Origin: Escherichia phage ERS-1
Direction: 5' to 3' (one strand)
Sequence record: PP337211
DNA: 64,000 bases
Shown: positions 7,901 to 60,387 of the stretch, in pieces
Layout of the letters: each line of letters begins with the position of its first letter
Numbering within the stretch: position 1 is the stretch's first letter
Translations under genes and position numbers: made by a program
Notes under the pieces: generated by a model
The model's database searches: none
Told to the model about the DNA's origin: nothing
What the model saw: the letters and a program-made list of their open reading frames with translations, nothing else

Positions 7901-9814
7901 CCCCGAGGCGCTGATCTGCCTGCGCCACTTCCCCGTGGCTTCTCTGGCGGTTTGAGGTAGCGAAGGCGGCGCGCTGCTCCTGGTTTTCGTTCTGCTGCCT
8001 TCGCCCGTTGGCTTCGAGGCGCTTCTGCTTCTCCGGTACGTCGCGGCGAGTTCCGCCGAGCGGCCCCTCCCCGAAGGCCCGGACCGCATCCTGGGAGGCC
8101 ACCCGGGTCGATGTTGTCGCCGTACTTCTCCCCCTGGTACTCCGCGGCGGCTCCCGCCGTCCCGATCGGTCTGGAGGAGGCGCTGCTGGCTCGTGGCTGG
8201 CTGGTCGATGTCCGTGGAGGACTTCGCTGGCGGACTGGCGATGCGATCGGACCGTGACCTGGTACTTGCGGGGGTCCTCCGGGTTGCGCCCGAGGCGGGC
8301 CTGGCACGCCTGGATGGTAGTGGTTGTGCTGGTTCTCCTTCGGCGGTGGGGGTTGGCTTTCCGAGGTGGCCGCGGCCCGTAGACGTTCGCTGTCCTGGCC
8401 CTCGAAGAAGCCCCCGGCCTGGAAGGTCGGCCACCGTCCTTCGGCTCCGGCGGCGACCCCCTCCGCGGACTGGTCCGTTGGGGCGGCGTCCGCGGACTCG
8501 AAGCCCCGGCGGTGAAGAAGTGGCCGGAGTCGCTGAGGATGTAGAACTTGTCCGGTTGTCCCAGCGCGCTCCCCGGCTCCGGAGGTTATCGCGTGCTGGA
8601 CTTTCTTCCGCACGGGCTCCGGTCCGTTGCGGCGGCGGTTCACCCCCATCTGGAAGCTTCGCCGGCCCCCGAAGGTCGTTGCTTCTCCGCGACCTGGGCG
8701 AGGGTGATGAAGATGTTTGCGGGTCCTTTGCAGTTCCTGGACCTGGCTCTGGTCCAGTGTCTCGACCGGGACGGCGGCGACCGTGGCGAGGCCAGTGACC
8801 TGCTCCGCCACCTCGCCCGGTCGGCGGCGACTTCCGCCGGGCGCTTCGCCGAAGGCGTCGTCTGCCCTGCGGGTGATCGATTCTTGGGTTTCGTCGCTCG
8901 TTTGGTTCTCCGAGGTTCGGGGTACGGTTGCCCTGGGGTCGGGCGGGATCGTGCCTGTCCTGCCGCTCGAAGCGGGCCGGGTCCGGCTTCGCCCCACCTC
9001 CGCCGGGAGGACCCGGACGGAGGGGCGAGGCGTGGGGAATTGCTGCCGATCTGCGGCTCGCCGGACCGTCTCCTGGCGTTATAGGGGCCGGTCCTCCGGT
9101 GCCGCCTGCGTGGCGAGGTGGGCCAGGGCGAAGATCCTGCGGTTTCGGTCGGGCTCTGCGCTTCGAGGTGGTCGGTGGACTGGAGGAGGTCGCCGGGGAG
9201 GGGCGGGCGTCCTCCGCCTCGCGCTTGCTCCTGGAAGGCGTGCCGTGGGTTGTCGGAACAGCTCGTGTCCTGTCTTCCCCGCCCTGCTCCTCCTTCGGCA
9301 GGTCCGCGGTGTCGGCGGGAGGCTGCCCTGCCCCGGCTCGTTCCGCTCCTGGGCGTCCCGCCCGAGTTCGTTCCTGTCGCTCCTGGAACTCGCGTTCGGC
9401 CCTCGCCTTCTGGGCGTGGGCTTGTTGGTGGATGCCGTGGACGGCCCGGCGGCGGTCGGGCGTCTCCGGTGAGACGGATGGTGGTCTTGCGGCTCAGGCG
9501 GTTCTCCGGTGATCTGTTCGCCCGGAAGGGAGGCGATGGTGTCGGCTTGGTTCTGCGGTGCGGGTTTCAGTCGCACCTGGCCGGTGGCGGAGGTGGATGA
9601 CCCTCAACGGCGTCCGGCCTGTCCGGTCCCCGGAGGTGCGCTTGCTGATGTAGATTTTGCCCGCTGCCCGGCCTGGACCTCCTCGCCCTGAGCCGCCAGG
9701 ATGATCGGGTACTCCTGGACGGCGAAGCCCTGCTGCTTGCAGAAGCCGCGGCCTTCTCCGCCGGTCCGTTCCGCTTGCCGGCGGTTGGGTCGCCTCCTCG
9801 CGGAGCTGGTCCCT

Positions 9815-10871: not shown

Positions 10872-10978
10872 TCAACGAATCGCAACGGCTTTGCCTGGTC
10901 CTCGCGCCGACTTCTTGCGGTTTTGCGCCGCGCGGGATCGGGTGCCCGTGTATGCGGCGGAAGGCTTCTTGTAGTTCA
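10872..10978 (-). CDS. Small basic protein
   Basis: GGAAAGGAG, 9 nt, then ATG at 10978; translation MNYKKPSAAYTGTRSRAAQNRKK...; about 65 nt downstream of motif copy 4. Confidence 0.4.
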
Positions 10979-11044
10979 TGATGGGCTGCTCCTTTCCAAT
11001 CTTGAATCGCGGGTGCTGGTCTGGGGTTGGTTGTTTGGACTCGT

Positions 11045-11082
11045 GTGAAGAAGTATAGTGGTTGTCCGAAGAAGTAAAGCGG
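11045..11082 (-). promoter_or_regulatory. Bipartite conserved motif, copy 4, about 65 nt upstream of an RBS and ATG
   Basis: gtgaagaagtatagtggttgtccgaagaagtaaagcgg with a 15 nt spacer; followed on the minus strand by GGAAAGGAG and the ATG at 10978. Confidence 0.5.
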
Positions 11083-11094
11083 TTTGGTGGTTTG

Positions 11095-12990
11095 GCGCGC
11101 GGCGGATTTCCCGCCGGACCTGAAGGCGGGCGTTGAGGGCCGCGCGGTGGTCGGAGGAAGTCCGCGGCACGTGCACCTGGGGCTCCCCCCTCGGTGAAGC
11201 GGACCTTGCAGCGTCCTGGCCTGCTCCTCCGTGTAGGCCATCCCGCCCCCTCGGCTCCCGCTTCGTCGCTTCCGCGTGTCGCTCGGCGGGGGTGCTCCTC
11301 GGGAACGGCGGCTTGTCCGACTTCGGGCTGTCCTTCTGTAGGCTCCTGGGTCGGTCGACCTTGGGCGAATCGAACGGGCTGCCGGGTCTTGTCCCTGTGC
11401 GCCCGGACCTGCTCCGCGGCGGGAGGTGGGCGCAGGCGCGCTCTCGATCGTGCGCCTCGAAGCCGTTCGTTGGTTGGAATTTCCGCCAGTTTCTGCTCCG
11501 ACTGCGGCCTGCTGTCCGGGAAGGCCCGGTGAGCGCTTGCCGAAGCCGGTGCGGCTGGCGTGGAGTTCGGCCTGGTCGCGGAGGTCGTTGGCGTAGTCGT
11601 CCGTGGGTCCTTCACCACCTTGCCGCTCCGCCTGTCCTGGTCGGTCTTGAGGCGGCCCTCCCCTGGCTCCTGGCCTTCCCTTTGGGTTTCCGGTGAGCGC
11701 CGTCACTTCTGGTCCTGCAGGGCGCGGGTCTCGGGGGGACTGGCGAACCTCGAAGGTGCTTGTGCCGGGTGAGGAGGAAGTGGAGGCCTGTGTTGGGCCC
11801 CTGTTGTCCGGTTGTCCTTGATGCGCTTGAAATAGGCGTGGTCCTGCTTGTGGCCCTCGCCCCTTTCGTGACCGAGAACCGGCGCCTTCCGGGCCCCGTA
11901 CCTTCCCGGACCCTTCGTTCGAGGCGAGGACCTGGTGGAGGTGCTTCGGCCGCTTCCCGTCCGCCCTTGCCCTCGATCCCTGGTGTTCGGTCATCAGGGT
12001 CGAACCTGCTTTCGTGCTTCTTGTCTCCGGCGAAGAAAGCCATCACCGAACAGCAGGACTAACCAGATCGCGGAGGTGGGCGTTGAAGGAGCCCACCAGG
12101 CGCTTCGAGTCGCTGACTTGGAGGTAGTGACGCCCAACATCGTGCCCGTGACCTTGGCGAAGAAGGACTTGCCGGTGCCGCGGCGACCGCGGAGGACCAC
12201 GGCCCTCGCCCGGGCCGTCCGGGGTGCTGGACCTCCGCGCCCCTCCCGACAGGTAGCGGCAGTGCTCCGGGTTCCCTGAGCCTGGACGTCGTCGCGGATG
12301 TGGTCGGGAAGGGCGCGCTCTCGCCCGGGAGGGAGTCGCCAACCCGCGCCTGGGTCGTAGGCTTCTTCCACCTCCTGGCCGGGGGTGGTGATGGGCTCGT
12401 GTTGGCGGCGCTGGGCGATCCGTTTGTAGGCTCCCGCGGCCTTCTCGATGGGCTTGCCCTCCTCCAGCGCCCAACCACTTCACCTTGATGTGGCGGTAGC
12501 GGTTGCGGAAGTCCTCGAAGGACTGCTCGCTGATTTGGTCCGCTTCATCGCTGGGTCCCGAACCTCGCTGACGATGCGGCACTTCTTCTGCCGATGTCCG
12601 CGACTGACGGCGTGCTTCTCGTTGAAGCTTGCGCGGCCAGGGTCCACCGCCTCCCCGCGGGCGTTCGATCTGCCGTGGGCGTAGCCTTCCCGTTCGGCTT
12701 GTCTCTGACGCTCGCGGCGATTTCGTCGGAGCCGGTGATCACCGCGAAGACGTTTGGGGACCTCCGCCGCCAGGTTGGTGCCTCCAACCTGGCTTCCCGA
12801 CCGGCAGAGGGGTACTGGTCGGGTCCGTGGGTCCTGCCCGGTGCCCTGCCCTGCGTGGTCGCTGATAGCCTTCCCGCGCCGGCCGGGCTCCGGCTCCTCC
12901 GTCCCGATGTCCGGGACGTTGCCCGTGATCTTGCCTTTGCACGGCCCCCCGGCCTGGCCCTGCTCCGCCTTTGGACTCGAACCGCGGGGG
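11095..12990 (-). CDS. SF3/P4-D5-type helicase-like P-loop NTPase (left copy)
   Basis: Walker A GTGKSFFAKV and Walker B LVLLFGDGF in ORF 11994..12371; collinear with the right-arm copy, which also shows a sensor-like ASNEDW...RR segment. Start codon apparently degraded (CAAAGG where the right copy has CAGATGG). Confidence 0.4.
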
Positions 12991-13022
12991 CGAATTGTTC
13001 GATGGGGCAGCTGGCCTCGTCG

Positions 13023-13611
13023 CTACGAGACGGCGAGGGTCGGCTGGCGACCCTTCTTGACCTTCTTCGCGGTGGGCGTCGATCGTGCCCGGGAGGCGGG
13101 CGATGCGAGCTCCGTTGTGGCGGTCCGCCTGAAGCACCTTCTCCGGCTGGATGTTGTACGCTTCCGCTCTGAGCCTTCGCCGCCGATCCGGCGATGTCCG
13201 CTTGTCGGACGGGTTTGGCTGCCAAGCCCTGCATAGCCCCCGCCCGAGTCGATGATGACCGTGGGCTTGGCGTGTAGGACTGGAGGCTTCGGCGCCGCGC
13301 CCGCTCCTCCTCGAAAGCCTCCCCGGCTCGCGGTCGATGTCCCGTGAAGCCTGGCGAGGCGGGCCAGTTGTCCTCCTTCGAGGCTTTCACGTTTGATTCG
13401 CCGGCGGACCGGGTTGGCGTGGAAGGCGTTGCGCTTGCCCTGATGCCCTTCGATCGCTCTGCGGCCTTCTGCCTGTGGTTGGGCGGAATGCCACCGTCTC
13501 CGTTTTCCCGTCCGGGATGATGGCCGTTGGGTACCACGGCCTCCCGGTCCCTTTCCTCCTTCAAGAAGTCGATCGCGTCCTTGGTCTTGTGTTTTGGTGT
13601 TTTCTGCCCAT
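13023..13611 (-). CDS. Hypothetical protein, gene X (about 196 aa)
   Basis: ATG at 13611 preceded by GGGGGA; ends ...AKKVKKGRQPTLAVS at 13023; right-arm paralogue at 61277..61868 has the same start context and C-terminus. Confidence 0.45.
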
Positions 13612-14428
13612 TTGATCCCCCGGCTGAAGGATATTCCCGAAGGCGCTGGCCGCGCTTTCCCCCGTCCTCCTTTGGATGACCGGAGGCGTGTGCCGGAGGC
13701 GGCGGCGATTTCGCGCTGGCGTTTTGCCCGCCCGGCGGCGGATGGGAACCGGCGTGGGCTTCGGCTCGTCCGAGGTGCTGGCGCGGTCTGATCGTCCGGC
13801 GGCGGTCCGCTTCCCGTCGCAGCGGTCCGGGCGCCTGTCCTTCGCGGCTTCGATCGGTTGAGGCCCTTGCGGCGGCGGTGTAGGCTTTCGCCTTGGTTGG
13901 TGCGGCAGGCCGGGCAGGACTCCTTGGTTCTTGGAAGGCGTGTCCGCTTGTGCGGCCCCTGCCCGTTGTCGTTCCCGCGAACCTGGCCCTGGTGCCGGCT
14001 ACCGTCCTTCCAAATAGACGCCGTCTCGTTCCCCCGACCTTCGGCGAGGAAGGCCCGGCCCCCGGCCTTGCGGCGACGGGCAGCGTGTCCTCGCTGGCGG
14101 TGAAGTGGTCCGCTCAAGCGGTCCGCCCCTGGGCGGCCTGTGTTGGTGAATTTCAATTTGGTTGCTGGTTGTAGTTCACGTCCGGGTCCCGGCAATGGGC
14201 TTCTCCTCGCCGGTCCGGTTGGCGACCGGATGACGGGGCGGAGGGAGTCCGCGTTGCGGCTTTGCTGGTTGCCCTCCTTCCACGTCGTAACGGCGGGCGA
14301 CTTCCGGCCTTTGACGCGCCGATTCCCTTCCTGCCCCCTCCCCCGGATCGCGGCCCGAGTAGTCGATGCCCGGGAAGGCGACCCGCTTCGCCTGCCTTCC
14401 CCGCGGCCTCCAGGCTGTTGGACCTGGG

Positions 14429-14451
14429 GAAGAAGTATAGAGCGTGAAGCC
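14429..14451 (-). promoter_or_regulatory. Conserved motif half-site (TATACT-type), copy 5
   Basis: gaagaagtatagagcgtgaagcc; shares the CTTCACGC-TATACT arrangement with the copy at 57884. Confidence 0.35.
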
Positions 14452-15094
14452 GTTGTGAGCCGCAAAAAGTTGAGCGCGATTTGACCTCTGCGCAGGCTAC
14501 GTGCCGGCAATTCGTACCGCGGTCCGGGTGCAGGGCTCGGCGAGTTGTTCGTGCCCGGGCGGAAGCCGTTGAACCCGGTCGAAGCCCGCTGTCGTTGGGC
14601 CTGGAACCGTGACGGCTCCGACCTTCGTGGAGGGTCCTTGTCCTGCCCGCGACGTGTTGGGCCTGCCGAGGCGGCGGTCCCTGGTGGTTGCGGTCCTGCG
14701 ACGTTCCCGAGGAAATAACCGCTGGAGCCGTCAAGGACTCTGCCCCTTCTCGCGGCCTAGGGCCTGGCGATACCGTTGCTGCCCGCAAACTTTGGCAGGA
14801 CGGTGCCGTGATGTCGCTGCGCGGCCCTCGATCCTTCCGGTGACGGTCGGGGGTTGCCCGCGCGGCCCTTCTTCTCGACCGCGCGGACCTGGTCCGGTTC
14901 CCCCCTCACCCGCTGTGGTCGATGAGGTATGCCTTGTCTGTCTCGCGCTCGATGACCCTTCCGAGGTCCGGTGTTGTCGTTGCTGCGGCGGTGTTGTTCT
15001 CTGGGGGTTCGCCCCGGACTTCCTCCGGGCGGCGGCCCTTTGCGCGTGTGTTGGTGGGTGAGCAAGTGACCTGCGCGTCTGTTGATAGGGACTT

Positions 15095-17611
15095 TCACGG
15101 CGGAATTCCCTGTCCTGCCCGGAAATACCCTGCTCTGCCAAATTTTGCCGCTGCCTTTGACGGGAGTTCCAGCGGCGTGCGCCTCACGTGGGCGGCTTCC
15201 GCGGCCTCCTTCGTCGTGTACGCTGAAGGCGATCTCGTCGTGGACCTGGATGATGATGTCCGTCTGGCTTCCTGTGCCTCTACGCCGTCCTTGGTCTGGT
15301 CTCGCGGAGGAGCCCTGAATCTGCGGTTGGTCCCTTGTGGTTCTTGCCCGTTCTCCCGTCCTCGTCCTTCGGGAAGTGGTGCGGCGACCGCTCGGTGTCG
15401 TGACGTAGCCGGCGGCCTTCGCCCGGGCTTCGGCCTTTGCCGCTTCTCGATGCAAACGGCCTTGTGGTCGAAGGTGTCCGGGAGGGCCTGACCCTCCGGC
15501 CCCGCGGCCTCGAACCTCCGCGCCCCTTCCGCGACCTGGCGCTGACCCTCCGGGCTGTTCGTGAACGGCCGGAAGCGGGGGCGTGCGGGCGGCCATCGGT
15601 CGGGAGCCCGAGCTTGCGCTCCTCCCCTCGCCCGCCTGTCCCGGTAGGACCTGCCGGTAGATTTCCTTGGCGTCCTTGCGCTTGATCCCCGCCTGTCCGC
15701 CATCATCCGGTGGTTGTCGGTGTTCGGGTCGTTGCGGACTGTCCCGGGCTTCGATTGTGGACCTGCCCTGCTGGTGCCCGTTTGGTCTTTGCCGGGTGGC
15801 GTAGTGGACCGCCTTGCGCGGCTCCTGCTGGCTGTAGTCGTTGGACGCCCTGTGTTGGCCTTCCTCCGGGAGGTAGATGGCCCGCCGCGGCGGCGAACTC
15901 TTCCCCAGCCGGTCGCTGCTGGAGGTTCGGGTGTTCGCTGGACTGTCGCCCGTAGGCAGGCGCCGCGGTCCCGTCGCTTTCGTCTCTTCCCTTCCGGCGG
16001 CGGAGCTGGTCGAACGTCCCGTGGAGGCGCCGTTCGCCATGTGGTCCGGGACGGACTGGCGAAGGTCGTGCGCCTTGTTTGCCTTCCGGCGCGTTCGAGG
16101 AGGCTCTGCCTCGGGTGGCTGATTGAGCCCTGGCTCCTTGTCGATGTTGGGCTTGCCCTGGGAGGTTGTTCGGCTTGATGCCGATGTGTTCGAGGGCGGG
16201 GGCGATCACCTCTGGCTTCCCGGTACGCTGCGGTGATCCGGTGGCCGGTGATCGACCGGACTTGGGCGTGGGCCTCCGTCTCCTTCTCCGCGCCGGGCTG
16301 GTCGGTTGTCCTGGCGGTCGCGTCGATTGCACGCCCCGGCGGCGAAGGCCCGTGAGGATCGGGGCAGGCCGGACTCCCTGGTGCAGGTTGCCCCGGGTCC
16401 TGCCGGACCTCCCGCTCCTGACGGCGGAGGATGTTGGGTGCGCGTGTCCTCCTCCGCGCACTTCCCGAGGCCTTGGCCGGAGGTCCCGGTTGCCCTTCTT
16501 CGGGCAATCCTGTACCACCGCGGCGGCGCGTGCTTCGTCCTTGCCGTGGAAGCCCCACCGCTCCGCGATAGCTTGCATGCTGTAGCCGTCGTGGAGTTTG
16601 GCAGTTGCGGGTCTGCGATCTGGATGTCACGGAAGTAGCGGACCCGCTCCAACTCGAGTGCCGTCCCCGGCGAGGAAGTCCGTTGGTGCCAGGTTGGCCT
16701 CCCAGGTCGCCGGTGAGCACCTTTGCCGGGCGCGGAGGTAGGCCGGTACGCCCTCCGGCCGGTAGGTTGCCCCCGCCTTCGCGTCCGATGGGGAGTACCC
16801 GCCCGGGCCGTCCTCGATTGCGAAGCTGATGCCGGTGATGTAGCTGTTCGGCGACGGCCCGCCCCGGCCCCGAGCTCTCGAGGTCCGGTCCCCGCGTTCC
16901 TGCCGATGGCGACCCGCTCGGCCCTCCCACCAGGGAGGGTGCTGAGGTCCGGGGCCTCCCTGTCGCTGGAGACGGTCGTGAACAGGGTGGTTGGAGGTAT
17001 GAGGCTTGGCTCCCACCTCCGCAATCATCTTGCGCGAGGTTCAGGTGCCGCGGTCTGGCTCCGGGTCGGACTCCCGGAAGGTGAGGATGTGGACCGCTTC
17101 GGCTCCGTCCTCCGTCCTGCCCGTTCGCGGCGGCGAAGGCGTCCGGCATGACGACGGGGCGGAGCGGGGCGAGGACCCCGTTGCGGGCGCCGGACCCTCT
17201 CCCGTAGTGGATCGCCTTCTCGGAGGTCCTGGCGCGGGTCCTCGTGCTCTTGCGGTTGCGGGTCGCGCACTGGTCGCGCGGCCTTCGGTGTAGCGGAGGC
17301 CGTTGGTTCCTCCCAGCTCCTGTGTTGGACGGGCGAGCGGCAGCGCTCATCCGTCCTTGCTTTTCGTTTTGTCCTAACTCTCTTCCTTTGGTTTTGCAGC
17401 CGGAGCGTCTGCTGGCGGTAGTAATACCGGGAACCCCGCCTCCCCGTCGGTGTTGTATGGACCTTGCGGAGGTGCGCGAGTTCTTCCGTGTCGAAGGCGT
17501 AGAACTTCTGCTGCGGGCTCCTGCCGGTTGCTGGCCTCTCCAGTTGTTCGCGCACCACCTCCTCGAGAAGTCCGAGAGACGGCGATGCGGCTGGCGCTTC
17601 GCTGCCCGCAA
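15095..17611 (-). CDS. Family A DNA polymerase with 3'-5' exonuclease domain
   Basis: Minus-strand motifs in correct order: Exo I FYAFDTEE (about 17480-17505), PNLQ box GRQSSEHPNLQQ, motif A DYSQQEPR (15801-15818), GYVTT...GRR, motif C IIIQVHDEIAF (15225-15248), stop about 45 codons later. Frames break repeatedly; N-terminus may extend to the ATG at 18084. Confidence 0.6.
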   Translation of the reverse strand: MRAAKRQPHRRLSDFSRRWCANNWRGQQPAGARSRSSTPSTRKNSRTSARSIQHRRGGGVPGITTASRRSGCKTKGRELGQNEKQGRMSAAARPSNTGAGRNQRPPLHRRPRDQCATRNRKSTRTRARTSEKAIHYGRGSGARNGVLAPLRPVVMPDAFAAANGQDGGRSRSGPHPHLPGVRPGARPRHLNLAQDDCGGGSQASYLQPPCSRPSPATGRPRTSAPSLVGGPSGSPSAGTRGPDLESSGPGRAVAEQLHHRHQLRNRGRPGRVLPIGREGGGNLPAGGRTGLPPRPAKVLTGDLGGQPGTNGLPRRGRHSSWSGSATSVTSRSQTRNCQTPRRLQHASYRGAVGLPRQGRSTRRRGGTGLPEEGQPGPPAKASGSARRRTRAPNILRRQEREVRQDPGQPAPGSPACPDPHGPSPPGRAIDATARTTDQPGAEKETEAHAQVRSITGHRITAAYREARGDRPRPRTHRHQAEQPPRASPTSTRSQGSISHPRQSLLERAGRQTRRTTFASPSRTTWRTAPPRDVRPAPPPEGKRRKRRDRGACLRATVQRTPEPPAATGWGRVRRRGGPSTSRRKANTGRPTTTASRSRARRSTTPPGKDQTGTSRAGPQSKPGTVRNDPNTDNHRMMADRRGSSARTPRKSTGRSYRDRRARGGAQARAPDRWPPARPRFRPFTNSPEGQRQVAEGARRFEAAGPEGQALPDTFDHKAVCIEKRQRPKPGRRPPATSRHRAVAAPLPEGRGRENGQEPQGTNRRFRAPPRDQTKDGVEAQEARRTSSSRSTTRSPSAYTTKEAAEAAHVRRTPLELPSKAAAKFGRAGYFRAGQGIPP

Positions 17612-18080
17612 GGGCGCACGGGTTCGGACTTCGGCCCCGCTCTCCCGTCACCGTCTTGCCTCTCCGGACGGCGCGACCGCTTCGTTGCCCGTGCTCCTCC
17701 CGGCGCTGCCCTGGTCGAGGGCGTCCGCGGCCTTTGCTGTCCTCCTCGTCGGGAGAAGGCCCGGGAGGTGCCTGGTCGCCTGTCGCGGCGTTCCGCGGCC
17801 TCCGTGCCCTTCCCCAGTTCGGGTGGTTCGCTCTCGCCGGGGCCGGCAATGTCGCCTGGCGGAACGCTCCGCGCAGTCGTGCCGCTTGGACCGCCTTGAC
17901 AGGTTCGGCGACGGGTGCGGGTGGAAGGAGGCTCGACGCCGTAGCTGCGCTGGGCGATGTTGTACTGACCGTGGTGCGGGACGATGTGGTCCGGTGGACC
18001 GTCCCGGCCTCCCGGGTCGCGGCGATCCGGGCGGAGCGGCGGACGGCGCGGCGGTTGGCTCCTCCGCCTCGCGCTCCTCG

Positions 18081-18650
18081 TCATGAATCTTGCTTCCCTG
18101 GCTTCCCTTCGTCCGCGTCTCCTCCCTGCCGCGCCGTCGTCATTGCCTGGGCCTCGCGGGCCTCGAAGGCGGCGCGGCGGCGTTGATCCGTTTCCTTCCC
18201 CGGCCGTCTTCCCGTCGGTGGCGGCGACGTTCTCCGCTCGCCCCGGGCGGCGTCGAAGCGGAGGGGTTGGACGCTTGAAAGCCTTGTGGGCCTTGAGGTT
18301 GGGATTGCTCGCGGCGGAAGAAGGGTTGCGGAAGCCGTCGGCGTCCGGCTCGCCGGTGCCCGGCTCCTGGTCGCCTTCCTGCCGGTCCGTGGAGGCTTGA
18401 AGCGGAAGGGCTCCGCGATCCCGGCGGCGTAGGGGTCGGGCGTTCCTTCCCGGGGTGTTGGGTTGGCGGCGAGGTCCGCGAGCGGGCGACCTTGCCCAGT
18501 ACCCTCATCGGCGTGGAAGTTGGCGCTGACTTGGCGGTAGATGCCTTGTTGGCCCGAGGTCCGGCGACGTCGGCGGAGGTAGCTGAAGTGGACCGCGTTG
18601 GCCCCTGTAGGCTCCCCGGGTCCCGTCGTCGGAGCGGTTGGTGCGGTCAT
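18081..18650 (-). CDS. Hypothetical protein
   Basis: ORF with moderately protein-like N-terminus (MTAPTAPTTGPGEPTGANAVHFSYL...); its TGA stop overlaps the next ATG (ATGA at 18081-18084). Confidence 0.3.
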   Translation of the reverse strand: MTAPTAPTTGPGEPTGANAVHFSYLRRRRRTSGQQGIYRQVSANFHADEGTGQGRPLADLAANPTPREGTPDPYAAGIAEPFRFKPPRTGRKATRSRAPASRTPTASATLLPPRAIPTSRPTRLSSVQPLRFDAARGERRTSPPPTGRRPGKETDQRRRAAFEAREAQAMTTARQGGDADEGKPGKQDS

Positions 18651-19025
18651 GTCCGGCCGACCGTCGTGATCTGGAAGATGGCCTGAAGGTTGGCAGGGGA
18701 GGTCCTTGCCTTGGCGGCCTGGTCCGCGTCCGCGCTCCTGTCCAGGACCTGGCGGTGGTCATCGCGGTTCGCCTTCGGGCGGCGATGATCTTGGGCAGTG
18801 GTCCTCGAAGAAGTGCTGGCGCCCTGCGGAAGCCGTAGGCCCCGTGGAAGGTCCTGCCGTCGTCCAGTAGCTGCGCTTGCGACCGGCGAAGCGGGGCGCG
18901 CATTCCGCGTCATTGCGTCTGCCCAGCATCCAGAGGCTTTCCATCAGGTGGAAGAAGGGGTTGGCGTCCCGTTCTGCCCGGCGCGCTCCGCCGGCGGAGG
19001 CGCCGGTGGCGACGGGTTCCGGGCG

Positions 19026-21245
19026 TCAAGCGGGGCCGTTGCGCGAGTCGCGGCGGACGCCCTCGAAGGACCTGTCGAGAGGGCCTCCCGGGAGGGCCTG
19101 TTGTACGTTGCGGGCTTTGATGACTTTGTCTGTTAATTTGAAGATGACGTTGCCGGTCCGGCGAAGGACGCGGAAGCGGTTTGCGGGTGGTGCCCCGTTA
19201 AGCCGGCGTTCGGTTCGCGGATCGGGGGCGATAGCCCGGGACGGCGATTTTAACCGCGAAGGGGCGGGCGAACTGCTCCGCCTCGGCCCGGTTTCATTGT
19301 TTCTGACCGTGGTGACGGAGTTCGTGACGGCCTCCGCGGAGGACTTCGCCTTGGACTTCTCCGCGTCCGCTCGTCCCGGGCCTCTTCTAGGTGTCGGTGG
19401 TGGCTGTGGGCGCTTGGCGTGGTGTACCGGCGTTGTACTCGTGGGACTTGGCGATGCGGCGGCGCTCCCCGAGGTCGCGCGTGCGAAGCGTTGGCCCTCG
19501 AACTGGACCTTGACGTCGCCGTGGTCGGCAAGAAGCCGTCCGGCGCCTGCCCTTCCCGCTTGCGGAGCGGTTCCGGGTAGATGTCGTTGTACACGGCGTC
19601 CCCAGGGTGAACTTCTCCGCCTCCCTGGGCTTTTTTCGCGGGCCTCGAAGGCGTGCTGAGGACCCCTTGCCGCTCGCGGATGTAATTGGACCCGGCACCT
19701 GCCCGAACCTGGCCTCCAGTTCGTCGATGCCGCCGGAATGGTCCGGCGGCGAGGTTTCGATCCGGCGAGGGTGGTTGCCTTGCGCCGTGGTGCTCCAGCG
19801 GGTTTCTTGCCTTCGTCGGTGGTGCGCTTGCTCGTCGAACTTGGCGTGTGTTCGATGTCCCGGGCCTCGAACCGCGGCCCCCGCGCGGGCTCCCGAGCTG
19901 CGGCGGTCCGAAGGTTTCGTCGAAGCCCCGGGCGTCCGTGTTGGCTTGGCTTCGGCTCGATCAGTTTCCGCGTTCGTCTGCTCCGGGCGGGGCTTCGCGG
20001 CGAGGTCGTGCCCTGCTGGCGGTCGAGCCCGCGGATCGCCCCGGCAGGGCGTTGGCCGGTTCCGTGACGTCCTGGGCGTCGTGGTAGCGGGTGTGGCGGA
20101 GGTCGGTCACCGTTGCCCGGACGGCCCCCGCCGACCAGCGGTGCTGCTGGAATTTGGCCCTGCGCTTTCGAGGGTCGGAACCCGCGGAACCTTGGGGCTG
20201 CACTTGGCGGGCTCCGCGTCGCGCGCCCGTTCCTCGCGGTCCTCCCGGTACGGCCCGGCAATCTCCGCGATGTAGCGGTGCTTGGTCCGCTGTACCCTCC
20301 TTGGAGGGGTCGGACTCCGCGCGGATCGTGAGGCTCCGGGCGCCGCCTTGTTGCCCGCGGCGGCGTAGTCCTCCGGCGCTTCGCCGCTTCGCGGGCTCGA
20401 GTCCTCCCCTTTGCCGGGTTCCCGGCTCCGCCTTGTCCTGGAGAGCGGAGGGTGTCGGCTGTTGATGTAGCGGGCGATGGTGAGGGCGGGTCTTGTAAGG
20501 TGCGGGTGGTCCGCGTAGGGCTTGCGGATGTTCTCCTGGTCCTGGTCGTCCCGGGTTGGCTTCGCGGCAAGATGTTAGGGTACTGCCGCCCTCGCGAACC
20601 GGGTCCGCGGTCCGGGGCCGGGCTTCCCGGCCTTGCGGTCGGTAGACGTCGTGCCGGGCCCTTGAAGGCGGCGATGTCGTCGACGCGTGGGTGGTCGGTT
20701 CGGGGTCCTGGTCGGGCTCTCGATGACGGCCTTGATGTCCTTCGGGGCCGTCTCCCTGTGGATGTCGCGGACCGTCTCGCCGTCCGCCGTGGCCTCTCGC
20801 CGGACCCGGGCGATGGTGCGGTGCTTGTCGGCCTCTGGTTCTCCTCGACGGGCTTCCCGCCGTCGCGCTCCTGGATGTGCTTTGGGCTTCCAGCGGCGTG
20901 TCCTGAAGGCCGGGTTGTTCCGCCGTTCGCCTTCGACCCCTGCGCGTATGTAGATGGGCACTGACACCTCGCGCCCTCCAGCCCTACCGCCTTCACGTCC
21001 GGGCCCCGCCAACCAGCTCCGCGACGGCCTTGGCCGCGGCTTGGGTCTTGATCCGGTCCGGACCGGCGGTGGTCGCTCCGGCGGCGGCGGGGGTAGTCCC
21101 CGATGATGGCGATGCCGCCCGGCGCGTCGCCGGGATCGGCTTGTGGTCCGGGACGATGACGTCGATGACGTGGCCTGCGGATCGCGGTCCTGGCTGCGGG
21201 TGTGGTCTTGCCGGAGCCGTTACTGCCCTGCGTGATGTACTTCAT
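19026..21245 (-). CDS. P-loop NTPase (kinase-like N-terminal Walker A); may be more than one gene
   Basis: GGAGAA, 6 nt, ATG at 21245; N-terminus MKYITQGSNGSGKTT; protein-like C-terminal end GNVIFKLTDKVIKARNVQQAL... stopping at 19026; intervening frames broken. Confidence 0.4.
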   Translation of the reverse strand: MKYITQGSNGSGKTTPAARTAIRRPRHRRHRPGPQADPGDAPGGIAIIGDYPRRRRSDHRRSGPDQDPSRGQGRRGAGWRGPDVKAVGLEGARCQCPSTYAQGSKANGGTTRPSGHAAGSPKHIQERDGGKPVEENQRPTSTAPSPGSGERPRRTARRSATSTGRRPRRTSRPSSRARPGPRTDHPRVDDIAAFKGPARRLPTARPGSPAPDRGPGSRGRQYPNILPRSQPGTTRTRRTSASPTRTTRTLQDPPSPSPATSTADTLRSPGQGGAGNPAKGRTRAREAAKRRRTTPPRATRRRPEPHDPRGVRPLQGGYSGPSTATSRRLPGRTGRTARNGRATRSPPSAAPRFRGFRPSKAQGQIPAAPLVGGGRPGNGDRPPPHPLPRRPGRHGTGQRPAGAIRGLDRQQGTTSPRSPARSRRTRKLIEPKPSQHGRPGLRRNLRTAAAREPARGPRFEARDIEHTPSSTSKRTTDEGKKPAGAPRRKATTLAGSKPRRRTIPAASTNWRPGSGRCRVQLHPRAARGPQHAFEAREKSPGRRRSSPWGRRVQRHLPGTAPQAGRAGAGRLLADHGDVKVQFEGQRFARATSGSAAASPSPTSTTPVHHAKRPQPPPTPRRGPGRADAEKSKAKSSAEAVTNSVTTVRNNETGPRRSSSPAPSRLKSPSRAIAPDPRTERRLNGAPPANRFRVLRRTGNVIFKLTDKVIKARNVQQALPGGPLDRSFEGVRRDSRNGPA

Positions 21246-21556
21246 CTTGGGTTCTCCACCGGTTGAAAACGGCGGAGCCGGAGCCCCGCCTGGTTGCTGT
21301 TGGTTGCGTGATCGGGATGATCTTGCGCTCGCCGCCGTCCTCCTCCGGCGGGTCTGGTTCCACGATCTTCTTGAAGTCGGGCGAGCGGCCTTCGCCGCTC
21401 CGGCTGGTTCCGAACCGGCGGGCTTGCCCTTCGTCCGCTGTCCGCGCGGTGGAGACCTGCCGGTGGGGCGCGTCCCTTGACCTCCTGGAAGGGCTGGCCC
21501 GTCGGTCCGGTGAAGGTTCGGCACGCGCTGGCCGTGGCCGGTCTGCGGTGATCATT

Positions 21557-22688
21557 TCACGCCTTCCAAAGCCAGTGCCGGCTCCGCCGGCTCCGGGCTT
21601 CCCGCGGCGGGTCCAGGCGTCGCGTAGGTCGGTTGCCGTGCTCGTCGCCAGTTCCGGTACCTGGCCGGTGGGCTTCGACCCGGCACGGCTCCGCGATGGT
21701 CTTTTCGGGCTCCGGCCTGGTTCTCCGCGGGCTGTCGGCCAAGGCTTTGGTACGCTCCGGTCCGAACCGCTTTGGAGGCGTTCGATCATTGCCGGGGCCC
21801 GCTGTAGCCCGCCTCCCGAATTTTCGGCGATTGTGGTCGTTGCCGACCGCGGCCTGGTGCTCCAGCGTGTGGCGGATGTCGTCGTGGGTGACGATCCCCG
21901 GGATCTGCGGATTGACCTGAATGGAGGTGTAGATGCCCTGACGGCGCTCGGCCATTTCGTCAGATGGTCCTGAAGGCTGATGGCCCCGGCAGGCCGTGCC
22001 GTTGTGGTCGTTGCCGGTGTTCTGTGACTTCTGGGCGTAGCTGTAGGGGTTCCGCTTCGGGTGCCCATGGCCCGTGACGGTAGCCGAGACGGCTGGAAAG
22101 AAGATGGTGCCGGGCTCCCGAAGGCTTCCGCCCCCGCCGGGCGTTATGGGCGCCGTCCCGGTTGGGAAGGGGTCCGTGAAGCTGGAGAAGTAGCCCGCGG
22201 CGGAGGTCCGGGACTTCGAGAGGGTTTGCGGACCTGCTCGCCGGAGTTCGCCGGGACGCCGATGAGGCCGGTGCCGCGGTAGCCCCGGAACCCGCTGTCG
22301 ACGTAGCAGGCGCGTGCCGCCTGTAGCCCTGGAGGTTCGTTGATCGCCTCGCTGAAGGGGCGGGCGCGGGAGCCTCGCTCGTCGTTGCGCTTGTCCTGGT
22401 ACCTGCCCTGAAGGGGCTTGGCGTTCGGGATGCGGATGTGCGGGAGGTAGGTGACGTCGTTTGAAGCGGCAGGCCCTCCACCTCCTTCTTGTCGTCGTCC
22501 TTCGCGTCGCGGACCTTCCCCTCTGCCCTTGCCGGAACTTCGCGCGGCTGGTCCTGTGGGTTTCCTTCTCCCCCATCGGGTCCTGGAACTCCCGTTGGTT
22601 CGGTCCGGCGGGCGAAGACTTGTAAGCCTCCTGCAGCGGCTTCGCCGGTTCTTCTGTCCTTGCCGCGTGGTCGGTGCCATTCTCCTTC
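21557..22688 (-). CDS. Hypothetical protein
   Basis: High third-position GC segments ([27 protein letters not shown]; [42 protein letters not shown]); starts just downstream of motif copy 6. Function not assignable. Confidence 0.35.
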
Positions 22689-22690
22689 AA

Positions 22691-22729
22691 CTGTGAAAGT
22701 CAGCGCCTTACCCGGAAGAAGTAAAGCGG
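22691..22729 (-). promoter_or_regulatory. Bipartite conserved motif, copy 6 (proximal half intact)
   Basis: ctgtgaaagtcag...ccggaagaagtaaagcgg immediately upstream of the minus-strand gene starting near 22688. Confidence 0.4.
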
Positions 22730-25671
22730 CGTTAATTCGGCCCGGCTCGCCCGTCGCTTCCGGGCGGCTCCCCTGGCCTTCGTCTCCTCCGAACGCCGGC
22801 GACCGGCGAACTGCCCGGAACCGTGCGGCGACCCTTCCGCGTCGGGTCGTCTGGTTGTCCTTTTGGGACCCGAGGGTGAACGCTTGGGGTTGACGGTGGC
22901 GGTCGGTCGCTGTGAACCTGGCGTCACCGCTGTCGGGGATCGGCAATTGTTCGAAGGGCTCGAGGATAGCCGATTCCTGCCGCTTGTAGTCGATGTTGGC
23001 GTGTACCGTGCTGAAGTACCTGGAGCAGGTCGGGTCCTGTGCTCCCGTCTCCGGGTCCTCCTTACAGCGGGCGTTTAGGTGAGCCGGTCCGTCACGGTTA
23101 CCGATGTTCGGGCGATGGGGCGTGGATGGACGGAAGCCTGTCGAGCGGGTCGCTGCGTTTCGGCTTTTGGGACGGTAACGGGTTGGGGAACGGGGCGGAG
23201 GCGTCCCGGGCCGCGTCCGCGTACCCGTAGCCCTCGTCCGGATGGGTCGATCCGGTTGCCCGGTCCGGCCCGCGGCCTTCTCGATGTACTCCCGGCTGGC
23301 GTCCTGGCTCCGCAGATCCGCTTGTGGAGGATGACGTCGTAGTTGCGGAGGCTCGCCTCCTCCAAGCCCTCGAGTGCCCGGCGGCGACCGTCCCCCGAGC
23401 CGACACCGATGACCGGGTCCCGGCAGTCCGGGAGGTGCGGGGCGGTGCGGACGGCCTCCGCGGCGTTCTCCGTGATCGACTCCGGGAGCTTGGGGCGTTG
23501 GCTGTAGCTGTCGTGGTAGTTCTCCTGGTGCTCTGGCCGGACGGGCGATCGCGGAGCGGCCCGCCGGGATGTCCAGGTCCGCCCCGAGCTGGCGAGCGTG
23601 CTGCTGTTGGACGCGCGGGCGTCCGCGGCCCCGTCGCGCTTGAAGCGGGGCCCGTAGTTCGCTTGCACCCGTTCCCCAGCTGCTGGCGTAGGCGACCGCC
23701 CTGCCCGCCTTCGAGCGGCACGTGTCCGGCTGCCGATGGTGGTTCTTCTGCTGGTCTCGATATGGGCGAGGCCCCGTGAATCTCGCTGAAGGACGGACCC
23801 GGAGCGCCCTGCTCTCCCGCTTCAGGATCGGCACCCCGTCAGCTGGTGTTCGACCGGGGCGTCGTTGACGATTGTTGCTGCTCTTGGGCGTGGTCGAGGA
23901 AGGCCCGTGCGGCGGAGGCGGCCTGCCTCGGTCGAGCCCGCCGTCGATTTCCCGGATGTCGTTCCGGGTGGGAGCTGGCCCTTCGCGGGATTTTCCGGTT
24001 TGCCGCCGCACCGTCTCCACCTTCTGGATGTTCGGCGGGCGGTTGCCGGGTGGGGCGAGGTCCGCGAACTGCCGGTTTGTAAGTCCGCGACCCTGGGCGA
24101 TCGCCTCGCGCTTGGGCTTCGCGTTCTCCGGGTACTCGTGAGCCTCGCGCCGCTCCGCCGTCGCGGCCTTCTCCGGTCCTTGAAGCGAAGACGGCGGCGT
24201 TGTCCGAGTCCGCCGGCATCTCGACCGGTTCCGGCTTGTCGCGATCTTGAAGCTGATCGGGACTGAAGCCGTTGTGCTCCTGGGCGCGGGCGGAGACGGT
24301 GCGGAAGGGGCGCTCCTCCTCCGTCGCCCGGGCTCCCCGGTGGGTGCCCCGCCTCCCGGGCGGTCGCCGAGCGGGCCTGGAGGGAGGTCCCGCAGTCGGC
24401 GGTGCGACCCTGGCCTGTAGCGGCGGCGCTCGCGTCCCCGGAGGCCTGTGACCCCCGGCGGGCGTCTCCTCCTCGTGGTGGGCCGCGACGTCCCTTTGCG
24501 GAACCTCGCCCTCCTTCTCCAGGAAGGAGGCGACCCCGGCGTGGAGTAGCTCCAGGTTGAGGCTAGCCTGTGGGCGGGTGGAGAAGTCCCCCGCCTGCCC
24601 GCGCCGAACCAGGGCCGTGCACACGGGGTCGGATCGCGGTGGTGATCCGGTGTCGGCCGGGAACGTCTCGATGTCCGGTTGGGGCAAGTTTCTGCCGTGT
24701 CTTTTCTCTGGTATGCGTGACCGATTTTCCCGCTCGTGTCCTTGCACATGTCCGGTTGGGTAATTGGCGACTGAAGGAAGGCTCCGTGCGGACTTCTTCG
24801 TTGACGTGAATACGGGATGGACCGTCTGCCCTTGCCGTCGCCGTCCTCCGTGATCCGGGTGAATCCCGCAGGTAGCTTGAGGGCTCCCTTCTGTATCCCC
24901 GCTCCGCCGGGCACCTCCGGCGGAGGGTAGCCGCGTGCGCTCCGAGGCTCCCAGTGGCCTTGCCCTGCTTGGGCTGGCGGGCTACCGGCGGGCGTCCTGC
25001 CTTCGGCGGACTTCTGCGGCTCGTGGGCCGGGATCGCGTGGCCTTCCGGGACCTCACGTGGAACCGCTTGTGCCGTCCGCGGCGAAGGCGGAGCGGCACC
25101 CGCAGCCCTTCCGCTTCATGTCCTGCTGAAGCCGGAGGGCGTGGCTCGGTCCGGGCTTGTTGCTGCCCGGGCTTCGACCTGTTCCTGCCTTGGTCGTCCG
25201 TTTCGGGGCGGGATCCTGTATGTCGGGAGACGCCCGCTCCAGCCCTCGCGGCGGGGATCGGGGCGTGGCCCGGGCGGCCGTGTCGGCGCCGCGCGGGGCG
25301 CGGGCCTTCTTCTCCTCCGCGGACTTCGGAGCCTTCTGGGCCTTCGGAGGCGACGGGGCGGGGGTTGCGGTTTGTTTGCGGTTTCGACCTTCTGGGTTCG
25401 GCCTGCTCTGCCGCTCAAACTTCCGGGTGCGCTTCGGCATAACGCGCCAGGCATCTTCTGGTGTGGGGCAATGGCGGTGGTCTTGTTGGCGAAGCGGCGC
25501 ACGTTCGGACGGACTTGCCGTTGCGGAAGGTGCCGATGACTTCGTCGGACCTGCTCGACCAGGGCTGGGCCGGAGGGCTCGCTGGGAGGCTTCGGTGTAG
25601 GCGACGTTGTCGAAGTTGATGGTGTTGGCGGTAGGCTCCTTTTCTGGGGTTGAGGTGCGATCTTGTTCGAC

Positions 25672-25713
25672 CGTGAGAGAATCTTAACCCTGGCCCCCGA
25701 AGAAGTAAAGTGG
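25672..25713 (-). promoter_or_regulatory. Bipartite conserved motif, copy 7
   Basis: cccgaagaagtaaagtgg; minus strand TTTACT, 17 nt, TAAGAT; followed by an AAAAGGAG leader. Confidence 0.4.
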
Positions 25714-25729
25714 TTTGACTAACTTTTTC

Positions 25730-28002: not shown

Positions 28003-28049
28003 TGTTCCTTCAGGGCCGCGGCGATCCGGTTCGATGGCCTCGCGGAAGG

Positions 28050-29306
28050 ACTCGCCGCTGCCGCGGTACTTCTGGGCGTGTAGTTCTTGTGAGTAGGGTA
28101 CTTGAGGACCTGTTGTGAGTCTCCTGAAGGGTTGAGGGCTTTCTATCGTGTTGTTGCTCCTGTTCTTGGGTAGGCTGGTGAACGAGGTCGATGTGTTCCG
28201 CGGCCCGGGTAATGGCGGTGTATGCCCCTTTCCTTCCGGTCCTTCCCGTACCCCTGTCCGGGCCTGGCGGACGTTGTTCCTTCGGGAGCCCTGCGACTTG
28301 TGGACGGTGAGCGGCTGCCCGTCGAACTCCTCCGCGTCCTCCGCTCCCAAGATTCGCTTGTTGCCGTGGAAGTAGTGGGGGTGGGCGCTGACTTCGACCT
28401 TCGCGCCGTCCTCGCCTTCGATGTCCTTTACGGTCGCCGCTGTCGAAGATCGTGTCGCGGCGGACCTTCCGGCTGGCCGTTGAGGCCTGCCCGTGGTTGT
28501 TGCGGAGGTGCCGCTCGTCGCCTTCCTGGGTGGGCGTCTGTCCGCCCGAGGAGTTCCCGGGTACGTCCGTTGCTCGTGATTCTCGTGGCGTCCTGCCGGG
28601 TCAGGAGCCCTTGGCGGTGGAGGTACCATGTCCCGCAGTTCTTCGCGCTGTGGTGGCGGTGGGAATTTGTGGCTGGTCCGTAGTCGCCGGGGCGGAGGCG
28701 CGGCCCTCGCGGACCTCCTTGGAGGTCCGGAACGATCGGGTTGTCCTGGGCCTGGCGGTGAATCTCCGTGAGGATGTCGGGCTTGTTCTTGAAGAAAGGG
28801 CGCTGCCCGGCGGGAGCTGTCCGGGATCGCCTGGTGAGGATCGGTGCCGAAGCCAGGCCCTCCTCCCGCCGTCGGTTGCGGAGATTTGCGAGCGTGGCCT
28901 CGAACCAGGGGCGACTCCGCGTTGAGCTGGAAGGTCGGGCGGGCGAGGTCGATCTGCTCCGCCTTGATCGCCGCAATCGACCTTCGCGAGGGTTTCCGGG
29001 ACGGGCTTGTGAAGTGAAGAGCCGCGCCCGCTCCGCTTGGAGTTCCTTCTGGTGCTGCTGCGACTTGTCCTTGGGCGTGTAGATGAGCTTGTGAATGGGT
29101 TCCGTTGGTCGCCCCGGACTTCGTGAGGACGTGAGCGGCCTTGCCGGTGTAGGCGGCGAAGTGCCGGACCGTCGACGGTCGCGGCGAGGTGTTTGGCCGG
29201 GTGGTCTTGCCGGTTCCGGCGTACCCGGCGAGCTGGAAGGCGGGCTTGTCCCGGGTCTTGAGCGATGCTGCCCGGTTGGCGCGGTCCGCCGTTGCGGACT
29301 CCGTCA
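28050..29306 (-). CDS. RecD/Dda-like SF1B DNA helicase
   Basis: GGAG, 7 nt, ATG at 29306; Walker A AGYAGTGKTT, motif Ia AYTGKAAHVL, TIHKLIYTPK (reached only after a +1 shift at a CCC run), ILTEIHRQ, LTVHKSQGS, AYTAITRAAEHIDLV; at least three frame changes. Confidence 0.6.
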
Positions 29307-29324
29307 TGACCGTTCTCCGTTTCT

Positions 29325-29357
29325 GATGAAAAGAAGGGGGGCCCTTGAAGGCCCCCT
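29325..29357 (-). terminator. Rho-independent terminator-like hairpin just upstream of the helicase RBS
   Basis: Minus strand GGGGGCC-ttcaag-GGCCCCC followed by TTCTTTTCATC, then GGAGAACGGTCATG. Confidence 0.45.
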
Positions 29358-29360
29358 GAA

Positions 29361-30690
29361 GGTACGGCCCGAGGGCGGGCCGTCCGGGCTGGTCCTCCCG
29401 GTGGAATCGGGTCCGGCTTGCCGCCGCCTGCGCCTGGGCTTCTTCGTCCGCGAGCCCGGAGCCTGCGAACGGGCGCGCGGGCCTCGCCCTGCTCGATCGT
29501 CGATTCGATGTTCGGCGGATGGAACCTGCGGTTGTGGGCAGGAGGTGAGCCTGCTGGGCGTTCTCGCCGTCGAAGGCGATGGCGTCCCGTTGAAGAACTG
29601 GCCCTTGTCGTTCTCGCTTGCGGTCTTGAGGCGGTAGCGGTGGGCGAACCTGCGGAGCCGGAATGCGGCGACCGTCCGGCGGAATCTGGATGGCTTGGCC
29701 TTGGTCCTTCCTGCCCTTGCACTTCTTGATCTTCGTGGAGCTGAAGGCCGGTGACCGCTTCCAGGCGTTGCCGTGGTCGTTGCGCGATGCCGGCTGGCGC
29801 AAGGTTTCGATCCTGGCTCGTCGCCGTCCGGGGTGCTGCAGCTGCCGTGCCCCGAGGACGCGGCCTTGGCGGGTTCACCAGGTCGCCGTCGACTTCGTGG
29901 ATGCCCGCAAACCGCCGCCCGCATCGCGTGGGCTTCCACGCCACGTACACGTGCCGGGTGGTCGCCGGGACGAGTGGACGCCCTTGGCCGTCCCGGCTTC
30001 GCCGGTCCCGGTGTTGGATCATGCCCTGGTGGTGCTGTCGTTCTCCTGGAGCTGCGGGCTGAGGGCCTGAGAATCTGGAGGAACGGGATGCTGTAGTCAT
30101 TGCTGGTCTGGCTCTCGAAAACCCGCGCGCCCGCGTAGTGGTGCGTGCCTGGCCTCTGCGGTTGCGGTGTTCTGTTCCTTCAGCCCGAGGTCGGTGGTCT
30201 TGCTATCGGTCTTCTGGCGGTTACAGGCTCCTTCGGTTCGATGTGAGCGGGTCGATTGGGCCCCCGGTCGAATAGCCCTGCCGTTCCTGCCGGTGTACCC
30301 GCGTCCCGCGGGGCGGTTCGGCTCGGGAGGAAGGCCCGGGGCCGTCCTCCTTCCTGGTTTGTTCTTCGATCTTGGACGTGCTGACGATGGACCCAGGTGT
30401 CGGGGGACTTCCTCGCCTTGCGTGGCCCTCGCGGACGAAAGCGGTAGGGTTGAAGGATGGACGCTGGCGTTGTCGCCGCCTCGAACTCGTCCGCGAGACG
30501 CTGGCGGTTCGCTGCCTTCTGCCCCTCGCCCTTGCCGAAGGCGACGGTGACCCGCGCTCGATCATCGCGGCGCGGCCGTTCTGCTCGAGCCGGCGAAGGC
30601 GAGCGGGGCCTTGGCCTTCGGGATGCTGGCGCGGATCGTCTCGTCGGGTTTGATCTTCTGGCGGTGGTGGTCTTGAGCTGCCAAGTTGCG
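29361..30690 (-). CDS. Hypothetical protein(s)
   Basis: Protein-like minus-strand segments (VTVAFGKGEGQKAANRQRLADEFEAATTPASILQPY; AHRYRLKTASENDKGQFF) in alternating frames; boundaries unresolved. Confidence 0.3.
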
Positions 30691-30702
30691 CCGATCTGGT
30701 CC

Positions 30703-30887
30703 TTAGTTTGTACCCTGGCGCTCCGCGATGTCGCGGAGTTCTTCGCGGGCCTTGTCGAGTTGGGCTTCGAGGTCTGCGACCTTCGACTGGGCGCCTGTTG
30801 TTCGGCCTGCTGAGCGAGTTGGTCCTGGCTTGTCGCCGGCGGTCTGAGGTTGGACATAGTCCAGGTATGCGTTTTCACTTGAGGCAT
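30703..30887 (-). CDS. Small coiled-coil-like protein (about 61 aa)
   Basis: Motif copy 8, leader, GGAGAA, then ATG at 30887; MPQVKTHTWTMSNLRPPATSQDQLAQQAEQQ...QSKVADLEAQLDKAREELRDIAERQGTN ending at TAA 30703; length implies one indel. Confidence 0.45.
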
Positions 30888-30925
30888 GTGGTTCTCCGTT
30901 TCTTCGGTAGAGGGGTATCCCAATT

Positions 30926-30966
30926 GCTGAAGAAGTATAGCCGGTTGTTCGGAAGAAGTAAAGAGG
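30926..30966 (-). promoter_or_regulatory. Bipartite conserved motif, copy 8, with promoter-leader-RBS-ATG arrangement
   Basis: gctgaagaagtatagccggttgttcggaagaagtaaagagg; minus strand TTTACT (30957-30962), exact 17 nt spacer, TATACT (30934-30939), then about 40 nt leader, GGAGAA (30892-30897) and ATG at 30887. Confidence 0.55.
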
Positions 30967-60378: not shown

Positions 60379-60387
60379 GCTCGCCTG

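Follow-up and report, generated by a model that had tools for sequence, protein, structure and literature searches.

We describe here an analysis of a 64,000-nucleotide stretch of sequence record PP337211 (Escherichia phage ERS-1), the whole of which we refer to as the window, and of the start codons missing from it downstream of a recurrent promoter-like motif and its Shine-Dalgarno leaders. The record is very probably a raw, unsplit (in-silico chimeric) Oxford Nanopore Technologies (ONT) sequence from a multiplexed phage library, in which miscalls arising from thymidine hypermodification and bound to the dinucleotide 5'-TG-3' erase the starts. It is a raw read with internal adapters, its errors are bound to one strand and to TG, start and stop codons are lost from it, and an accurate relative has ATG at the positions concerned. 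The loss of start codons is a sequencing artefact and not biology. A first-pass annotation of the same sequence had seen the losses in several copies of a conserved cassette and had proposed either non-ATG initiation or, as the likelier cause, sequence error or decay. Error as the cause is borne out by the internal ONT adapters and barcodes, by the density of indels and by the unequal survival of starts in the two reads that make up the window, although the near-universality of the loss, its TG specificity and the nature of the two arms as separate reads had all gone unnoticed.

Composition of the record

A 7.9-kb piece of the window matched 88 phage records, mostly of Pseudomonas Yuavirus (the M6/YuA group) and at about 81% identity, and as a reference we used the accurate complete genome of vB_Pa-PAC9 (PV426651.1; 61.7 kb, or 61,675 bp, with 87 annotated genes; hereafter PAC9). 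Window positions 1–57,578 are collinear with a circularly permuted PV426651.1 at 76–88% identity, running from reference position 35,343 to 61,675 and on from 1 to about 35,340–35,389, such that the alignment runs through the entire 61.7-kb PAC9 genome without a change of order. Positions 58,582–64,000 correspond to reference 53,776 to 48,105 in reverse, and this is the same locus as that at window positions ~10,900–16,050. The window can be divided into a first read fragment (1–57,949, with its genes on the minus strand), which is one full-length Yuavirus genome unit with raw-read error, a junction (57,950–58,577) containing adapters, four native barcodes and two tiny foreign inserts, and a second read fragment or 'right arm' (58,578–64,000, with plus-strand genes), in which part of the same phage region was read again, independently and on the opposite strand. 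We note that fragment 1 starts (window 1, reference 35,343) and ends (window ~57,950, reference ~35,340–35,389) at one reference position, which falls between the small terminase gene and ORF43. Fragment 1 appears to be a complete virion chromosome whose ends are the physical genome ends, with an end overlap of up to ~45 nt possible.

The adapter and barcode constructs are confined to 57,950–58,577, as identified by direct reading of 57,940–58,580 followed by blastn-short tests of the barcodes, using the BC08, BC03, BC02, BC07 and adapter sequences of the ONT and Porechop lists. Fragment 1 is closed by an ONT native-barcode construct, GGTGCTG-BC08-TTAACCTTAGCA, at 57,950–57,993 on the plus strand (89% over 45 nt, E 1.7e-4). 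There follows a short plus-strand molecule at 58,030–58,263 with BC03 at both ends, comprising the BC03 reverse complement at 58,030–58,049 (100% by blastn-short) and BC03 with its adapter at 58,225–58,263 (97% over 39 nt, E 3e-15), the closing adapter string being AGCAATACGTAACTGAAC(C)AAGT. The 116-nt insert of this molecule (58,074–58,189) is T-rich and has no match in the phage collection, and may represent junk signal, or else DNA that is unknown or heavily modified. A second short plus-strand molecule, at 58,280–58,511, carries BC02 at both ends (the reverse complement at 58,280–58,320, 95% over 42 nt, and BC02 at 58,468–58,511, 100% over 44 nt, E 1e-20, an exact match hard to obtain by chance) and contains a 147-nt insert (58,320–58,467) that is 94% identical to T4-like (Tequatrovirus) genomes, with an exact block of 79 nt at 58,320–58,398 and a garbled remainder. 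Fragment 2 is opened by the BC07 reverse complement and its CAGCACCT flank at 58,548–58,577 on the plus strand, an assignment made by eye only; the site reads aaaggatcgactcccatggaacac-cagcacct as against the expected AAGGATTCATTCCCACGGTAACAC-CAGCACCT, and BC07 was not recovered by the blastn-short scan. These adapters, barcodes and foreign inserts show the window to be not a genome but a series of molecules from a multiplexed phage library, left unsplit. Other unsplit ONT reads with internal adapters likewise chain molecules of different barcodes into a single record whose junctions carry adapter and barcode strings, and relative to these there is nothing unusual here, with barcodes 08, 03, 02 and 07 occurring within 630 nt.

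Identity to PAC9 is about 81% in each of the two Yuavirus blocks, the alignments have 7.5 indel columns per 100, deletions far outnumber insertions (0.015 insertions per aligned base), and reading frames are not respected, a profile characteristic of single-read error. Accuracy apart from the TG-affected dinucleotides is ~0.88. The inverted repeat formed by 10,983–16,030 and 58,744–63,886 (70–94% identity) was at first taken as a diverged duplication or as two adjacent prophages, and both possibilities were rejected on account of the adapters between the arms and the independent errors within each arm. Similarly, the 'left copy' and 'right-arm twin' that the first-pass annotation had treated as paralogues are two independent noisy reads of one locus, separated by adapters. 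The two blocks share 5,440 reference positions. At 3,749 of these neither departs from the reference, at 1,502 just one of the blocks does, and at 189 both do, where ~160 double errors are expected from independent error rates of 17%; at 72 of the 189 double differences the two reads agree with each other. As the errors in the two reads are independent, the DNA itself departs from PAC9 by no more than about 1% (~99% identity across the doubly read 5.4 kb), and the 70–94% 'inverted repeats' are a consequence of both arms being noisy reads of nearly identical DNA from opposite strands.

TG-bound errors and the loss of start and stop codons

Reference A residues, in the orientation of the window, are kept at only 58% of positions in the left block (1–57,578) and 67% in the right (58,582–64,000), despite the opposite gene strands of the two blocks. 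The loss is almost wholly of A after C on the plus strand, equivalent to T before G on the minus strand. The expectation that modified thymines would affect both strands equally clashed with this loss specific to plus-strand A, and the puzzle was settled by the context analysis, in that CA on the plus strand is TG on the minus strand. The T of minus-strand TG is miscalled at 80.4% of sites (n = 3,620), compared with 11.9% for TC, 25% for TA and 30% for TT. This holds in both blocks, with TG miscalled at 81% in the left block and 71% in the right arm, and TC at 13% and 7% respectively, whereas plus-strand TG is miscalled at only 23% and 19%. Wider context has no effect, and all 16 NTGN contexts lie within 68–88%. 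An internal control is provided by the non-Yuavirus DNA in the window, which is called exactly through 10 TG and six CA dinucleotides, distributed as six TG and five CA in the 79-nt T4-like block and four TG and one CA in the 44-nt BC02 construct. The window has a G+C content of 68% as against 65% in the reference, together with a strong A/T skew, and both are attributable to the TG-bound miscalling.

The start codons ATG, GTG and TTG and the stop codon TGA all contain TG, and TG miscalling therefore destroys starts and TGA stops. The 87 genes annotated in PAC9 were placed on the window, and only codons that were aligned were counted. In the left block, where the coding strand is the window minus strand, four of 75 starts and 13 of 73 stops are kept (nine of 64 for TGA), while in the right arm, where the coding strand is the window plus strand, six of eight starts and six of eight stops (all six being among eight TGA) are kept. 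The first-pass annotation had placed the loss in several copies of a cassette, but it is not confined to these, and 71 of the 75 aligned left-block starts are gone. The four survivors are at 30,887, 10,979, 13,611 and 21,245. Of the four ATGs that had been considered intact, three are among these survivors (30,887, 10,979 and 21,245), and the one at 29,306 is a pseudo-ATG. The ATG at 13,609–13,611 (minus strand, left read) belongs to the primase/helicase gene, which is NrS-1-like and had been described as 'SF3-like', and that at 21,243–21,245 (minus strand; reference 59,183) belongs to a nucleoside triphosphate hydrolase gene. The opposite-strand read (61,232–61,300) has a perfect 62-nt match to PAC9 across the primase start, and across the same region the left read errs at each TG.

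Loss of stops has its own consequences. An open reading frame (ORF) of 1,744 amino acids on the minus strand at 3,763–8,997 spans 14 reference genes and results from the loss of TGA stops, and many of the 316 ORFs of at least 80 amino acids in the window are probably artefacts of the same kind.

The promoter-like motif and its leaders

The promoter-like motif, CTTTACTTCTTC...CTATACTTCTTC, is found on the minus strand with 11 matches to its first half where 0.09 are expected; its fuller form is CTTTACTTCTTCGG-N8-10-CTATACTT(T)CTTCAC. Fragment 1 has seven recognizable copies and fragment 2 a single one. PAC9 has eight coding-strand copies (TTTACT-17/18-TATACT, then CTTC), all of them intergenic and upstream of genes, and there is an ATG downstream of every one. 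The absence of ATG after several of the window copies had been correctly observed, and alignment to PAC9 reveals how each was called. Behind the minus-strand copy at 2,543–2,579 (reference 38,648) the start is called ACG at ~2,501–2,499. The copy at 4,228–4,269 (minus; reference 40,399) has a garbled -10 part, and downstream of it ATGAGCCTGATC is called ATC-GAACC-ATC at ~4,201; downstream of the copy at 4,951–4,988 (minus; reference 41,144) ATCATGACC is called ATC--GGCC at ~4,915. The ATG is deleted in the call downstream of 22,693–22,726 (minus; reference 60,737), and it is called GCC at 25,629–25,627 downstream of 25,673–25,710 (minus; reference 1,711). It survived at 10,979–10,977 behind the copy at 11,045–11,079 (minus; reference 48,327) and at 30,887–30,885 behind that at 30,927–30,963 (minus; reference 7,162). 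The copy in fragment 2, at 63,795–63,827 on the plus strand, is the 11,045–11,079 copy read on the other strand, and the start region at 63,885–63,905 is garbled, with CATCATGAGCTAC called CTTAAATTAGG. We also note that neither the PAC9 copy at reference 46,296 nor the start of the gene that follows it can be recognized in the window at ~9,100–9,200 (minus), where the read is locally very poor.

The leaders are likewise a mixture of phage sequence and miscall. The reported minus-strand sites exist, with GGAGAA at 30,897–30,892 before the ATG at 30,887–30,885 and at 21,257–21,252 before the ATG at 21,245–21,243, and GGAAAGGAG is present on the minus strand before the ATG at 10,979–10,977. The ACGGAGAAC site is also present, but the ATG associated with it lies at 29,307–29,305, one base away from the position given, and is a pseudo-ATG situated 3 nt upstream of the true start. 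As a shared leader ACGGAGAAC is partly an artefact, in that PAC9 reads AAATGGAGAAC at several of these places and the window sequence is a miscall of it; all four reference copies of ATGGAGAAC are lost in the window. Nor is the GGAGAA context specific to the cassette, since it is found within 25 nt upstream of 23 of the 87 genes and constitutes the general Shine-Dalgarno context of the phage. G+C-rich hairpins followed by T runs, resembling terminators, occur at 21,262–21,290 and 29,325–29,360 (minus) directly upstream of two of the reported ribosome-binding sites, so that those near 21,245 and 29,306 sit behind terminators and not behind copies of the promoter motif.

Both the promoter-like motif and the GGAGAA context truly belong to the phage. 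In YuA, nine transcription start sites are described as sharing a conserved motif (PMC10914365, citing Ceyssens et al. 2008), and, judging by that description, the motif in the window and in PAC9 is probably the same one. The YuA motif is there called unlike bacterial promoters, although a simple scan here scores the sites at 9/12 against the sigma-70 consensus. Two isolated half-motifs were also seen. One CTATACTTCTTC, the -10-like half, is at 14,429–14,440 (minus) in the primase/repressor region and has no -35-like partner, and the corresponding region of the reference has no match to CTATACTTCTTC with one or fewer mismatches on the same strand. The other is a single CTATACTTCTTC at position 9,584 on the PAC9 plus strand, beside ORF12, which is the sole plus-strand gene and is divergently oriented, and it may be a promoter for ORF12.

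Thymidine hypermodification as the probable origin of the errors

Phages of the M6 type replace ~30% of T with 5-(2-aminoethyl)uridine (5-NedU) (PMC5889632). Restriction resistance pointed to TG and TC as the modified context, the M6 5-hydroxymethyl-deoxyuridine (5-hmdU) kinase is reported to modify TG (PMC6449724), and TG has been proposed as the target from restriction resistance together with kinase assays (PMC5889632, PMC6449724, PMC8989533). PAC9 encodes modification genes at reference 55,843–61,675 and 1–663, a region that aligns to window ~18,000–24,700, and the cluster includes a deoxyuridine (dU) hydroxymethylase, a 5-hmdU DNA kinase, an amino acid:DNA transferase, a pyridoxal phosphate (PLP) enzyme and a radical S-adenosylmethionine (SAM) enzyme. 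The kinase, transferase, PLP and radical SAM genes correspond to window ~19,200–24,700, where the window's copies are untranslatable through errors. The window thus shares with the 5-NedU system of Pseudomonas phage M6 and its relatives both a genus-level genome and the aligned modification cluster region. It differs in context, in that the published context is TG or TC ('TS'), whereas in the window TC behaves as if unmodified (12% error) and TG is miscalled at ~80%.

These features suggest a probable route from modification to missing codons. In Yuaviruses a bulky and charged derivative, which in M6 is 5-(2-aminoethyl)uridine, takes the place of about one thymidine in three, and it is made post-replicatively from 5-hmdU in a pathway whose first step is a DNA kinase preferring T before G. 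A base caller trained on normal DNA would be expected to miscall or delete the modified base, and often its neighbour too. If the window minus strand was the strand that passed through the pore, then miscalling of ~80% of its TG dinucleotides would make nearly all starts and most stops vanish across the 57.9 kb that have genes on that strand, where indels also break up the reading frames, and the promoter-like motif and GGAGAA would survive because they hold few TG. We infer that the TG-bound error probably stems from thymidine hypermodification and that it was the minus strand that was read. TG comprises 33% of all T in PAC9, close to the ~30% of T replaced in M6, and together with the ~80% rate of TG-bound miscalling this may be indirect evidence of modification in a TG context, a conclusion that depends on the assumed orientation of the read.

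Several considerations weigh against this interpretation. The adapter constructs are symmetric, so the direction of reading is unproven by sequence, and reading of the plus strand would make A after C the miscalled base. The control blocks were picked for exact matching and hence form a biased control, and the raised error at TA and TT (25–30%) indicates that TG may not be the sole context affected.

The first of these points underlies a very improbable alternative, in which the record is a raw nanopore read of the plus strand and the affected base is an adenine in 5'-CA-3' that carries the modification. The symmetric architecture of adapters and barcodes leaves the orientation unfixed, and the bottom-strand adapter at 58,241–58,263 is complete and well called in the plus orientation. 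ONT reads usually have well-called start adapters and garbled end adapters, however, and it is the minus orientation that yields well-called 5' and garbled 3' adapters, which leans slightly towards the minus strand. An attempt to orient the read from the T4-like insert, by way of errors at modified C, was uninformative, as its first 79 nt are free of error and the rest is garbled. No modification of A after C is known in the Yuavirus genus. Thymidine hypermodification with a TG preference is, by contrast, documented for Yuaviruses (PMC5889632, PMC6449724), for which no adenine modification is known, and the share of T that lies in TG fits the measured extent of replacement.

It is very improbable that the record is simply a read of generically poor quality with errors unrelated to base modification. 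An accuracy of ~81% overall and ~88% outside TG is typical of older pores or base callers, but an error of 80% at one dinucleotide on one strand, when TC stands at 12%, does not fit a generic profile; moreover, unmodified DNA in the same read (the T4-like insert and the barcodes) is exact through TG and CA, and the same signature is present in two separate molecules.

Decay is barely conceivable, whether the phage genome is pictured as defective or as hypermutated, with an inverted duplication that has diverged and starts lost without selection. In its favour, the arms are only ~70–75% alike and starts and stops are missing from nearly all genes, but there is an indel about every 13 bases without regard to codons, synthetic adapters and barcodes lie between the arms, and the error tracks the strand of the window and not the orientation of the genes. 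The arms, furthermore, lie at the same distance from the reference, their departures from it fall at independent positions, and where they agree they match it at ~99%; the suggestion of decay finds no support in two reads that err independently while the accurate relative has ATG. Equally hard to credit is initiation at ACG, ATC or similar codons, for which the only argument is that ATG is missing behind an intact Shine-Dalgarno sequence, and which is contradicted by the ATG at orthologous positions in the accurate relative and after each of its motif copies, by the ATG kept in the opposite-strand read and by downstream frames broken by indels. The first-pass annotation had held that accurate sequence restoring ATG would remove any biological interpretation, and PAC9 and the opposite-strand read effectively provide this.

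Having favoured hypermodified thymidine as the source of the errors, we propose, with reasonable though limited confidence, that the error pattern is a single-molecule map of hypermodification, according to which essentially every 5'-TG-3' on both strands is modified, independently of wider context, and TC is not. If so, the published proposal of TG or TC would be narrowed to TG alone, the ~30% replacement of T would be accounted for quantitatively, and every ATG, GTG or TTG start and every TGA stop on Yuavirus DNA would carry a hypermodified base. There is precedent for such use of errors in the modification-induced nanopore base-calling errors reported at the dPreQ0 'GA' motif of Pseudomonas phage iggy (PMC10484667), and a further paper is titled on phages that 'carry DNA modifications' (PMC11780129). 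The likeness is that miscalls caused by a non-canonical base are specific to one strand and bound to a short motif, which they thereby reveal; the difference from the 'GA' case is that in the window the T of TG is affected, presumably by a thymidine hypermodification derived from 5-hmdU. No report of a TG-bound nanopore signature for Yuaviruses was found in the literature searched on nanopore sequencing and Yuavirus.

The start-codon loss, the inverted gene duplication, the giant ORF and the unusual G+C content and skew are accordingly not properties of this phage. Uncorrected and untrimmed nanopore reads of modified phage DNA breed false findings in scans that use sequence only; for example, starts and stops seem to be missing, ORFs are long, 'paralogous arms' look diverged and composition is odd. 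Such reads can be recognized quickly by internal adapter strings and by disagreement with relatives that is bound to one strand and to one dinucleotide. The artefact is nonetheless information about the genus, as it suggests that TG, and not TG or TC, is the context of thymidine hypermodification in Yuaviruses, and that most such sites are modified. A TG-only context can be tested cheaply with existing nanopore data.

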